DNA from: Eledone cirrhosa | Taxonomy: Eukaryota | NCBI GenBank assembly: GCA_964016885.1 | Contig: OZ024743.1 | Span: 348,068,001 to 348,132,000, forward strand | DNA length: 64,000 bases | Direction: 5' to 3' | Part shown: piece by piece, positions 38,299 through 41,400 of the stretch | How positions within the stretch are numbered: the first letter of the stretch is position 1 | How the letters are laid out: each line of letters starts with the position of its first letter | Program-made: the position numbers and the translations under genes | The notes under the pieces: generated by a model | The model's database searches: none | What the model was told of the DNA's origin: nothing | Seen by the model: only the letters and a program-made list of their open reading frames with translations

Positions 38299-40054
38299 AT
38301 AAAAACAAATAACGAAACGAAATTAAATTTCGTTTCGTTTGTAACTCACTTTTGTATGACTGACGCTTAAACAATTAAGTTAAAGATGTACATCCATATA
38401 TGTATACTGAAATACTAGTATGTATATGAATACACACACGTATACATATGTAGGTGTACCAAGTTTTTTCACTGGTCACTTTACTGTGAGTGGCCAGCTA
38501 TTCTGTATGTAAACACACAGACAAACCGGTTTTTAGAGTCATACTGGTTTTTGAGGAAACACCTCTCCTCTATTCTTCAGAAAGCCAGACAAGGAATATT
38601 GAACTAGTTTCGTTGTTGTTACAACTCATCAGCAATATTTACCTATCTTCCGGCCTCTCTAGAGAATCGTAAAAGCACATATCGTTATATGCTTTTTCTA
38701 TGAAAATTAGTAGTGGGCAGACTAATTTGCATAGAGTGTGAGTAAGTACCGGTTCAACGGAGACGATAAAAACAAATAACGAAACGAAATTAAATTTCGT
38801 TTCGTTTGTAACTCACTTTTGTATGACTGACGCTTAAACAATTAAGTTAAAGATGTACATCCATATATGTATACTGAAATACTAGTATGTATATGAATAC
38901 ACACACGTATACATATGTAGGTGTACCAAGTTTTTTCACTGGTAACTTTACTGTGAGTGGCCAGCTATTCTGTATGTAAACACACAGACAAACCGGTTTT
39001 TAGAGTCATACTGGTTTTTGAGGAAACACCTCTCCTCTATTCTCCAGAAAGCCAGACAAGGAATATTGAACTAGTTTCGTTGTTGTTACAACTCATCAGC
39101 AATATTTACCTATCTTCCGGCCTCTCTAGAGAATCGTAAAAGCACATATCGTTATATGCTTTTTCTATGAAAATTAGTAGTGGGCAGACTAATTTGCATA
39201 GAGTGTGAGTAAGTACCGGTTCAACGGAGACGATAAAAACAAATAACGAAACGAAATTAAGTTTCGTTTCGTTTGTAACTCACTTTTGTATGACTGACGC
39301 TTAAACAATTAAGTTAAAGATGTACATCCATATATGTATACTGAAATACTAGTATGTATATGAATACACACACGTATACATATGTAGGTGTACCAAGTTT
39401 TTTCACTGGTCACTTTACTGTGAGTGGCCAGCTATTCTGTATGTAAACACACAGACAAACCGGTTTTTAGAGTCATACTGGTTTTTGAGGAAACACCTCT
39501 CCTCTATTCTTCAGAAAGCCAGACAAGGAATATTGAACTAGTTTCGTTGTTGTTACAACTCATCAGCAATATTTACCTATCTTCCGGCCTCTCTAGAGAA
39601 TCGTAAAAGCACATATCGTTATATGCTTTTTCTATGAAAATTAGTAGTGGGCAGACTAATTTGCATAGAGTGTGAGTAAGTACCGGTTCAACGGAGACGA
39701 TAAAAACAAATAACGAAACGAAATTAAATTTCGTTTCGTTTGTAACTCACTTTTGTATGACTGACGCTTAAACAATTAAGTTAAAGATGTACATCCATAT
39801 ATGTATACTGAAATACTAGTATGTATATGAATACACACACGTATACATATGTAGGTGTACCAAGTTTTTTCACTGGTCACTTTACTGTGAGTGGCCAGCT
39901 ATTCTGTATGTAAACACACAGACAAACTGGTTTTTAGAGTCATACTGGTTTTTGAGGAAACACCTCTCCTCTATTCTCCAGAAAGCCAGACAAGGAATAT
40001 TGAACTAGTTTCGTTGTTGTTACAACTCATCAGCAATATTTACCTATCTTCCGG
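38299..40054 (-). repeat. Tandem array, 467-bp unit x~3.75, left arm; retrozyme-like
   Basis: Units start at 38299, 38766, 39233 and 39700, with a few SNPs between them. Confidence 0.93.
38595..38639 (-). ncRNA. Minimal type I hammerhead (467 unit); repeated at 39062-39106, 39529-39573, 39996-40040
   Basis: aatattg CTGATGA gttgt-aaca-acaac GAAA ctag TT caatatt: 7-bp stem I, 5-bp stem II, palindromic stem III, GUU cleavage triplet. Confidence 0.92.
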
Positions 40055-40056
40055 CA

Positions 40057-41400
40057 AGGTAAATATTGCTGATGAGTTGTAACAACAACGAAACTAGTTC
40101 AATATTCCTTGTCTGGCTTTCTGGAGAATAGAGGAGAGGTGTTTCCTCAAAAACCAGTATGTCTCTAAAAACCGGTTTGTCTGTGTGTTTACATACAGAA
40201 TAGCTGGCCACTCACAGTAAAGTGACCAGTGAAAAAACTTGGTACACCTACATATGTATACGTGTGTGTATTCATATACATACTAGTATTTCAGTATACA
40301 TATATGGATGTACATCTTTAACTTAATTGTTTAAGCGTCAGTCATACAAAAGTGAGTTACAAACGAAACGAAATTTAATTTCGTTTCGTTATTTGTTTTT
40401 ATCGTCTCCGTTGAACCGGTACTTACTCACACACACACACACACACACACACACACACACACACACACACACACACACACACACACACACACACACACAC
40501 ACCACACACACACACACACACACACACACACACACACACACACACACACACACACACACACACACACTCTATGCAAATTAGTCTGCCCACTACTAATTTT
40601 CATAGAAAAAGCATATAACGATATGTGCTTTTACGATTCTCTAGAGAGGCCGGAAGATAGGTAAATATTGCTGATGAGTTGTAACAACAACGAAACTAGT
40701 TCAATATTCCTTGTCTGGCTTTCTGGAGAATAGAGGAGAGGTGTTTCCTCAAAAACCAGTATGACTCTAAAAACCGGTTTGTCTGTGTGTTTACATACAG
40801 AATAGCTGGCCACTCACAGTAAAGTGACCAGTGAAAAAACTTGGTACACCTACATATGTATACGTGTGTGTATTCATATACATACTAGTATTTCAGTATA
40901 CATATATGGATGTACATCTTTAACTTAATTGTTTAAGCGTCAGTCATACAAAAGTGAGTTACAAACGAAACGAAATTTAATTTCGTTTCGTTATTTGTTT
41001 TTATCGTCTCCGTTGAACCGGTACTTACTCACACTCTATGCAAATTAGTCTGCCCACTACTAATTTTCATAGAAAAAGCATATAACGATATGTGCTTTTA
41101 CGATTCTCTAGAGAGGCCGGAAGATAGGTAAATATTGCTGATGAGTTGTAACAACAACGAAACTAGTTCAATATTCCTTGTCTGGCTTTCTGGAGAATAG
41201 AGGAGAGGTGTTTCCTCAAAAACCAGTATGACTCTAAAAACCGGTTTGTCTGTGTGTTTACATACAGAATAGCTGGCCACTCACAGTAAAGTGACCAGTG
41301 AAAAAACTTGGTACACCTACATATGTATACGTGTGTGTATTCATATACATACTAGTATTTCAGTATACATATATGGATGTACATCTTTAACTTAATTGTT
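40057..41400 (+). repeat. Inverted 467-bp array x~2.6, right arm, with a (CA)n expansion at ~40426-40567
   Basis: Reverse complement of the left arm; ends at (AT)n at 41401. Confidence 0.93.
40062..40106 (+). ncRNA. Minimal type I hammerhead (467 unit); repeated at 40664-40708 and 41131-41175
   Basis: Same motif read directly on the plus strand. Confidence 0.92.

Follow-up and report, generated by a model that had tools for sequence, protein, structure and literature searches.

Back-to-back arrays of a predicted hammerhead retrozyme with two fixed ends point to PLE-type twin priming in Eledone cirrhosa

The window analysed here, a stretch of 64,000 nucleotides of the Eledone cirrhosa genome (contig OZ024743.1 of assembly GCA_964016885.1, positions 348,068,001 to 348,132,000), contains two tandem arrays of a 467-nt repeat that are joined back to back. 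The left array, the T arm (38299..40055), lies on the minus strand and consists of 3.76 units, with its RNA 5' end at unit position 415 and its 3' end at a fixed site T (303). The right array, the P arm (40057..41400), lies on the plus strand, starts at unit position 425, ends at a fixed site P (232) and combines 1,209 nt of unit sequence with a (CA)n expansion (40433..40562) derived from the CACAC at unit positions 329-333. Unit positions are counted from the predicted hammerhead cleavage site. The outer ends abut (AT)n tracts at 38271..38298 on the left, a tract that also borders the neighbouring array, and at 41401..41482 on the right. This neighbour is a second tandem family with a 591-nt unit and a variant hammerhead motif (36478..38276, minus strand), which is T-ended and adjoins the 467-nt array. 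A Hydra-like PLE insertion (32051..35259, minus strand) displays the same geometry, with a tailed end at 32051 and an inverted short-ended arm of about 33 nt at 35226-35259; it serves here for comparison and not as a demonstrated partner. At the start of the window (1-4539), a LINE-like element of the AP-endonuclease type harbours a 2,758-bp tandem duplication, 1,781 bp of which are identical.

Judged by its motifs, the 467-nt repeat is a non-LTR retrozyme with a predicted type I hammerhead. The putative ribozyme is composed of stem I (AATATTG/CAATATT), the core CUGAUGA..GAAA, a 5-bp stem II and a palindromic helix III. One motif is found in each unit, and the unit length lies within the range of about 50-1000 nt that defines retrozyme tandems. 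Altogether, the array holds seven motifs, four on the minus and three on the plus strand, and both arms pass through several predicted cleavage sites, as an earlier note on this DNA had claimed; for the motif at 40662..40708 (plus strand), the cut is predicted after GUU at 40701/40702. Rfam HH9 matched the seven motifs with E-values of 5e-7 to 2e-6, which is under the HH9 gathering score, and a search at gathering thresholds returned zero matches in the array. Matches to miRNA families at the array centre were discarded as a product of the inverted repeat only. Older subfamilies show a compensatory stem II change from U-A to A-U together with a GUC triplet, and the youngest subfamily carries GUU, the weaker triplet. 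The unit folds far more stably than shuffled sequences (z -9). Its P-to-T stretch, the tail (unit 229-303; 40930..41004 on the plus strand in one internal unit), forms a 13-bp hairpin and has the lowest variability of the unit across subfamilies, 1.4% versus 5-15% elsewhere, a value for which 21 of the 69 P-to-T positions were preset by the search pattern and which comes from related loci. The GC content of the array (0.36-0.37) is below the 50% limit given for retrozymes. The array is non-coding, with no ORF of at least 150 aa within 38.3-41.4 kb, and shows no LTR pair, and the RT plus GIY-YIG ORF of an autonomous PLE is absent from the array.

Genome-wide, 9,305 hammerhead cores were counted. 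Motifs belonging to other families were seen at L106 (251-873 and beyond), L087 (590/928) and L064 (9595); one of them lies within a tandem repeat of 311 nt, and two form a pair in opposite orientation. The 467-nt unit was also found in sequencing runs (X1-X17) coded as several organisms, with close matches in the runs compared in detail (X1, X4 and X6), which indicates that its distribution extends beyond this genome.

The earlier note had described the array as a palindrome of about 3.1 kb, in which the orientation flips outward and both outer ends face (AT)n. Unit coordinates confirmed the flip and the (AT)n borders at 38299-41400. The palindrome turned out to be an unequal inverted repeat instead, with arms of 1,757 bp (left) and 1,344 bp (right) that pair over 1,209 bp with five mismatches, none of them mirrored, and with a CA tract of about 130 nt restricted to the right arm. 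The proposed 11-nt spacer at 40046-40056 has the letters described, but ten of its nucleotides belong to the T arm, which they continue through unit positions 424-415, so that the A at 40056 remains as the single additional base. The five mismatches together with the one-sided CA tract indicate that neither arm is a mirrored reading of its counterpart. The tract is unique among the window and loci L031-L100; having expanded to (CA)~65 from the CACAC of a single unit copy, it may represent the birth of a microsatellite or slippage of the RT.

Two surveys extended the analysis to other loci. The first, based on similarity within the same genome, evaluated 37 of 325 candidates, with 150 of 229 matches listed, and yielded a set of 31 loci, i.e. 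the window and 30 others among the matches listed. Two long, directly joined, outward-facing arms were present at 19/31 loci, and all 19 combined one P with one T end, the T end of L036 being taken by eye across a small deletion. A tiny inverted arm of the opposite type was detected at three more loci (L042, L060, L049), seven loci were without a clear inverted arm and L046 extends past the fetched stretch. The exception is L054, where 970 bp separate two P-ended arms, of which one is chimeric between two subfamilies. The second survey was made by position and comprised the first 41 consecutive T junctions on contig C1 (40 stretches, L089/L090 being duplicates); since these were chosen on the T end, only the opposite end is tested. 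An inverted P-ended arm was observed at 30/41 junctions, in four cases of merely 13-22 nt, an inverted arm with a broken outer end at 3/41, and the inverted arm was missing at 8/41. The identity of the subfamilies in this set to the window unit lies between 87 and 100%.

RNA 3' ends mapped to unit positions 229-237 for P (48 of 48 P-arm loci) and to about 303 (298-303) for T. The T end with an exact ATAT junction occurs 2,017 times genome-wide; the count of 532 for the P-end pattern includes overlaps and a single subfamily and is no measure of locus number. The repeat is present at thousands of sites, usually as two back-to-back arrays with one fixed end each, and the inversion is real and the rule rather than the exception in the 467-nt family. 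The different unit positions at which the arms had been reported to stop proved to be termini fixed family-wide, and the outward inversion with (AT)n ends, which the note had suggested looking for elsewhere, recurred in both surveys. The decisive point beyond that earlier reading is that the two ends are fixed sites, each of which is used once per insertion, in line with the tail and the two RT start sites published for PLEs (PMC11167929).

Insertion marks were evaluated at 48 loci with both ends (L090 and L093 excluded). Both flanks are AT-like at 44 of these 48 loci, the C1 subset having been preselected for ATAT at the T end. Informative direct repeats of 12-16 nt flank 5/48 loci, compared to 0.13 expected from cross-paired flanks; clean target duplications were found at L040 and L058, and three of the five duplications sit in periodic microsatellites. 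These lengths exceed the 4 bp above which target duplications are counted for retrozymes, and the window locus itself is unreadable in this respect. At four loci (L045, L056, L085, L098), identical periodically interrupted (AT)n occurs on both flanks, as if the duplication had been repeated several times. Among 38 clean junctions, 29 are blunt or overlapping and nine, including that of the window, have 1-8 extra bases. The overlap at the 29 junctions averages 2.2 nt versus 0.76 nt in simulations, and BLAST ends may slightly inflate the observed overlaps. Contigs of run X1 showed loose AT ends at the T site (12) and near the P site (3).

The same geometry was observed in other families. The 591-nt repeat, whose sense strand is the minus strand in the window, is unrelated in sequence to the 467-nt unit and has a tail of about 165 nt and a long stem II. 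According to our own reading, its hammerhead-like motif has U3/A8 replacing C3/G8; hammerhead cores with U3/A8 work. At 20 loci of this family, part of which were chosen because both strands are present, we found 17 outward inversions, 16 of them with ends at 76-81 and 235-247. Each of the three PLE insertions in the window has one short and one tailed end, which bears out the claim that the array shares their geometry. For the Hydra-like PLE, a label based on motifs (CxCx5C, DKT, C-terminal GIY-YIG) and not on a tree, inverted ends were called from motifs in seven of 16 near-intact copies, in every case as T+P. Pfam gave no name to its ORFs. The element is very abundant (L101-L116), with 80,535 first-look candidates and many open frames of about 713 aa. 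The two remaining PLE families in the window have different ends and were rejected as partners.

The tie to PLE machinery proposed in the earlier note is thus upheld by geometry but not by sequence: among 58 stretches downstream of PLE endonuclease matches, no sequence-related partner PLE was detected, only adjacent retrozyme copies and AT-rich chance matches. Local alignment of retrozyme and PLE was no better than that of shuffles. The unit has only weak similarity to the Hydra-like PLE, with p-values of 0.02 for a window around T chosen post hoc, 0.12 for the surroundings of P and 0.68 overall. A scan of the Hydra-like PLE ends for a canonical hammerhead returned none, only a CAGAAGA..GAAA look-alike, and a match at L101 was rejected as partner homology, as it is located outside the element.

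Metazoan non-LTR retrozymes (Cervera and de la Pena, 2020, PMC7229834) resemble the 467-nt family in being non-coding tandem repeats of a few hundred nt with a GC content below 50% and a single type I hammerhead in every unit. That PLEs copy them by rolling-circle reverse transcription is put forward as a hypothesis (PMC7229834, PMC7761336); unlike the family described here, inverted arrays, fixed ends or a tail are not reported in the accessible parts of those main texts. PMC7229834, PMC7761336 and PMC4209133 propose the copying of circles as multimers with PLEs as candidate movers, and PMC7761336 states that no conserved motif indicates the element mobilising retrozymes. Another study ties retrozymes to pLTRs by phylogeny and favours local amplification, and its accessible portion mentions neither tails nor head-to-head arrays (bioRxiv 10.64898/2026.07.22.740005).

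For PLEs, inverted 5' copies, a 30-40-bp tail and (TA)n targets are described in PMC8557442, where the mechanism is called undefined, and head-to-head ends are attributed to self-priming in PMC3846280. EN-bearing PLEs (Hydra, Neptune, Naiad; PMC8557442, PMC3846280, PMC11167929) share with the 467-nt family an inverted 5'-truncated copy, a tail at one end and (TA)n targets. They have 8-10-bp duplications and two internal RT start sites, and the duplications of the 467-nt family measure 12-16 nt. Furthermore, the passenger here is a non-coding, multi-unit sequence with a tail of 70-74 nt instead of 30-40, and the ends are strictly one of each; in the accessible parts of these sources, inversions are explained by self-priming or EN resolution and not by twin priming. 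Non-autonomous Chlamys elements such as MRC1 (PMC8557442) are likewise PLE passengers with multicopy head-to-tail insertions. They possess the 3' sequence of an autonomous partner and are mostly without hammerheads; for the 467-nt family, no such partner was found.

The 467-nt insertions exhibit the marks of PLE mobilisation, namely an inverted 5'-truncated copy joined at the 5' end, two fixed 3' ends that delimit a one-sided tail, and AT targets. In LINE-1 twin priming, the second primer lands within a single linear RNA at positions that vary, and the two arms cover separate parts of it. Common to both systems are two target 3' ends priming two cDNAs, an inverted insert, a target duplication and microhomology at the junction; in the 467-nt family, by comparison, neither site varies and both arms consist of repeats of one unit, which results in long inverted repeats.

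A PLE protein has been shown in vitro to cut AT-rich DNA, to extend both strands and to start RT at two internal sites bounding the tail (PMC11167929). The protein is predicted to be dimeric and uses uncleaved linear RNA as main substrate, and inversions are outside the discussion of that study. As the start sites are the same for both strands and the main substrate is uncleaved, neither a one-of-each rule nor a circle follows from these data (PMC11167929).

Taken together, the locus is quite probably one insertion of a non-coding hammerhead retrozyme by PLE-type twin priming in (AT)n, probably on one monomer RNA circle. Twin priming of the PLE type is, taken by itself, very likely: the idea of two cDNAs primed from both sides of a break in (AT)n and joined at their 5' ends is supported by the fixed ends and the junctions. 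Tandem transcripts would self-cleave at the predicted sites and then circularise. A PLE protein, perhaps as a dimer, would cut both target strands with a stagger of about 12 nt, one target 3' end starting at P (229-234) and the other at T (about 303), and each RT would travel around the circle, covering anything from less than one unit to several. Head-to-head joining of both cDNA 3' ends may then proceed via 0-5 nt of microhomology or a few added bases, with repair filling in, and unequal exchange could later lengthen some arms.

Twin priming would also be compatible with a linear template, namely an uncleaved multimer transcribed from a source array of uniform units, without any circle. This alternative, which we regard as unlikely, agrees with the dominance of uncleaved RNA as substrate in vitro (PMC11167929) and with the weaker GUU triplet of the youngest subfamily. 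Copying of a multimer should transmit differences from unit to unit, but young arrays are nearly uniform inside and distinct from other loci: at L076, 0 of 9,220 bases are minor ones and 19/19 copies carry a private variant. Judged within the 40 loci sampled out of more than 2,000, private variants have become fixed in each unit of the two arms at 14/40 loci and in one arm only at a single locus. The nearest relative is the locus's own T arm at 23/40 loci, with a tie at 10/40 and the T arm of another locus nearer at 7/40. Private variants common to both arms point to one monomer template for both, although homogeneous unsampled sources or homogenisation of the arms by gene conversion could mimic this pattern. 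The 5' ends do not pile up at the ribozyme cut either (2/70 within 10 nt versus 3.1 by chance); they ignore the cut site, and run-off from cleaved linear RNA is therefore not seen. The earlier note had left the template as circular or multimeric RNA. The variant patterns favour the monomer circle without proving it, and we infer such a circle as the template with moderate confidence.

A different route to inverted arms is that a single cDNA or antisense transcript folds back and primes itself, with trimming by the endonuclease setting the second end, as may be combined from ideas in PMC3846280 and PMC8557442. In this case, one arm must lie inside the other, as the P arm does inside the T arm in the window. 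Neither arm is inside the other at 7/47 loci, where shuffled, independent lengths predict 7.7 and fold-back 0; L061 and L067 have no sequence common to both arms, and the five window mismatches are unmirrored. Arm lengths behave as independent, and the non-nested loci exclude fold-back as the sole route. The paired 5' ends of the 467-nt family are nearer to each other than uniform (KS p 0.01, n=32), a closeness that fold-back also predicts, symmetric junctions (within 25 nt) occur at 7/32 loci versus 3.5 by chance, and the junctions of L034, L077 and L082 lie inside the unit's own hairpins or palindromes, so that fold-back may contribute. The 591-nt family shows no 5'-end symmetry, though just 1/16 of its loci are non-nested (3.6 expected, range 1-7). 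As the general explanation, fold-back appears quite improbable. We also considered that both cDNAs halt at one break in the circle, and dropped this idea after a weak fit in the 467-nt family and no replication in the 591-nt family.

Satellite growth by unequal crossing-over from single PLE ends, followed by inversion through recombination or repair, would extend the growth model of bioRxiv 10.64898/2026.07.22.740005. It is in accordance with higher-order variant patterns in long arms (L065, L046): L065 (= L148; C1 5.738-5.753 Mb) is a 14.65-kb insert with an arm of about 31 units, in which such patterns recur over 30 units, and variant blocks exist at L046 and L058. Not all units were thus born at insertion, and long arrays also grew locally afterwards. 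This model cannot yield one P plus one T end, each on (AT)n, nor inverted mini-arms of 13-22 nt or target duplications that enclose both arms together; it accounts solely for later growth and is very improbable as the origin of the geometry. An assembly artefact from fold-back chimeric reads is scarcely credible, since the arms differ by five positions, the 130-nt CA tract and their ends, and a single end rule governs dozens of loci, each with a junction of its own, even though in three runs of short-read contigs, which drop such junctions, no independent contig covers 40036-40049 at the window junction.

PLE inversions, tails and the retrozyme-PLE hypothesis are already published; their combination here lends genomic support to this standing hypothesis and provides a testable mechanism. 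The mostly open-access main texts searched contained no report of a two-end footprint on retrozymes or of PLE twin priming. More tentatively, and at somewhat less than even likelihood, PLE integration might in general be an obligate asymmetric twin priming, in which a dimeric RT/endonuclease uses each RNA start site once, one per strand, and a circle yields two arrays. If true, a single rule would account for the inversions and tails of PLEs as well as for the origin of hammerhead satellites, and the genome would be seeded with thousands of inverted repeats of kilobase size, a potential source of dsRNA. The finding joins two open questions, which enzyme moves animal retrozymes and why PLEs have inverted ends and tails. 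The young, near-identical non-coding copies provide a clean record of the reaction, and the 467-nt substrate with its two predicted start sites could enter the in vitro PLE assay already published, in linear as well as in circular form. If this reading is right, many hammerhead satellites would begin as multi-unit retrotransposition products.
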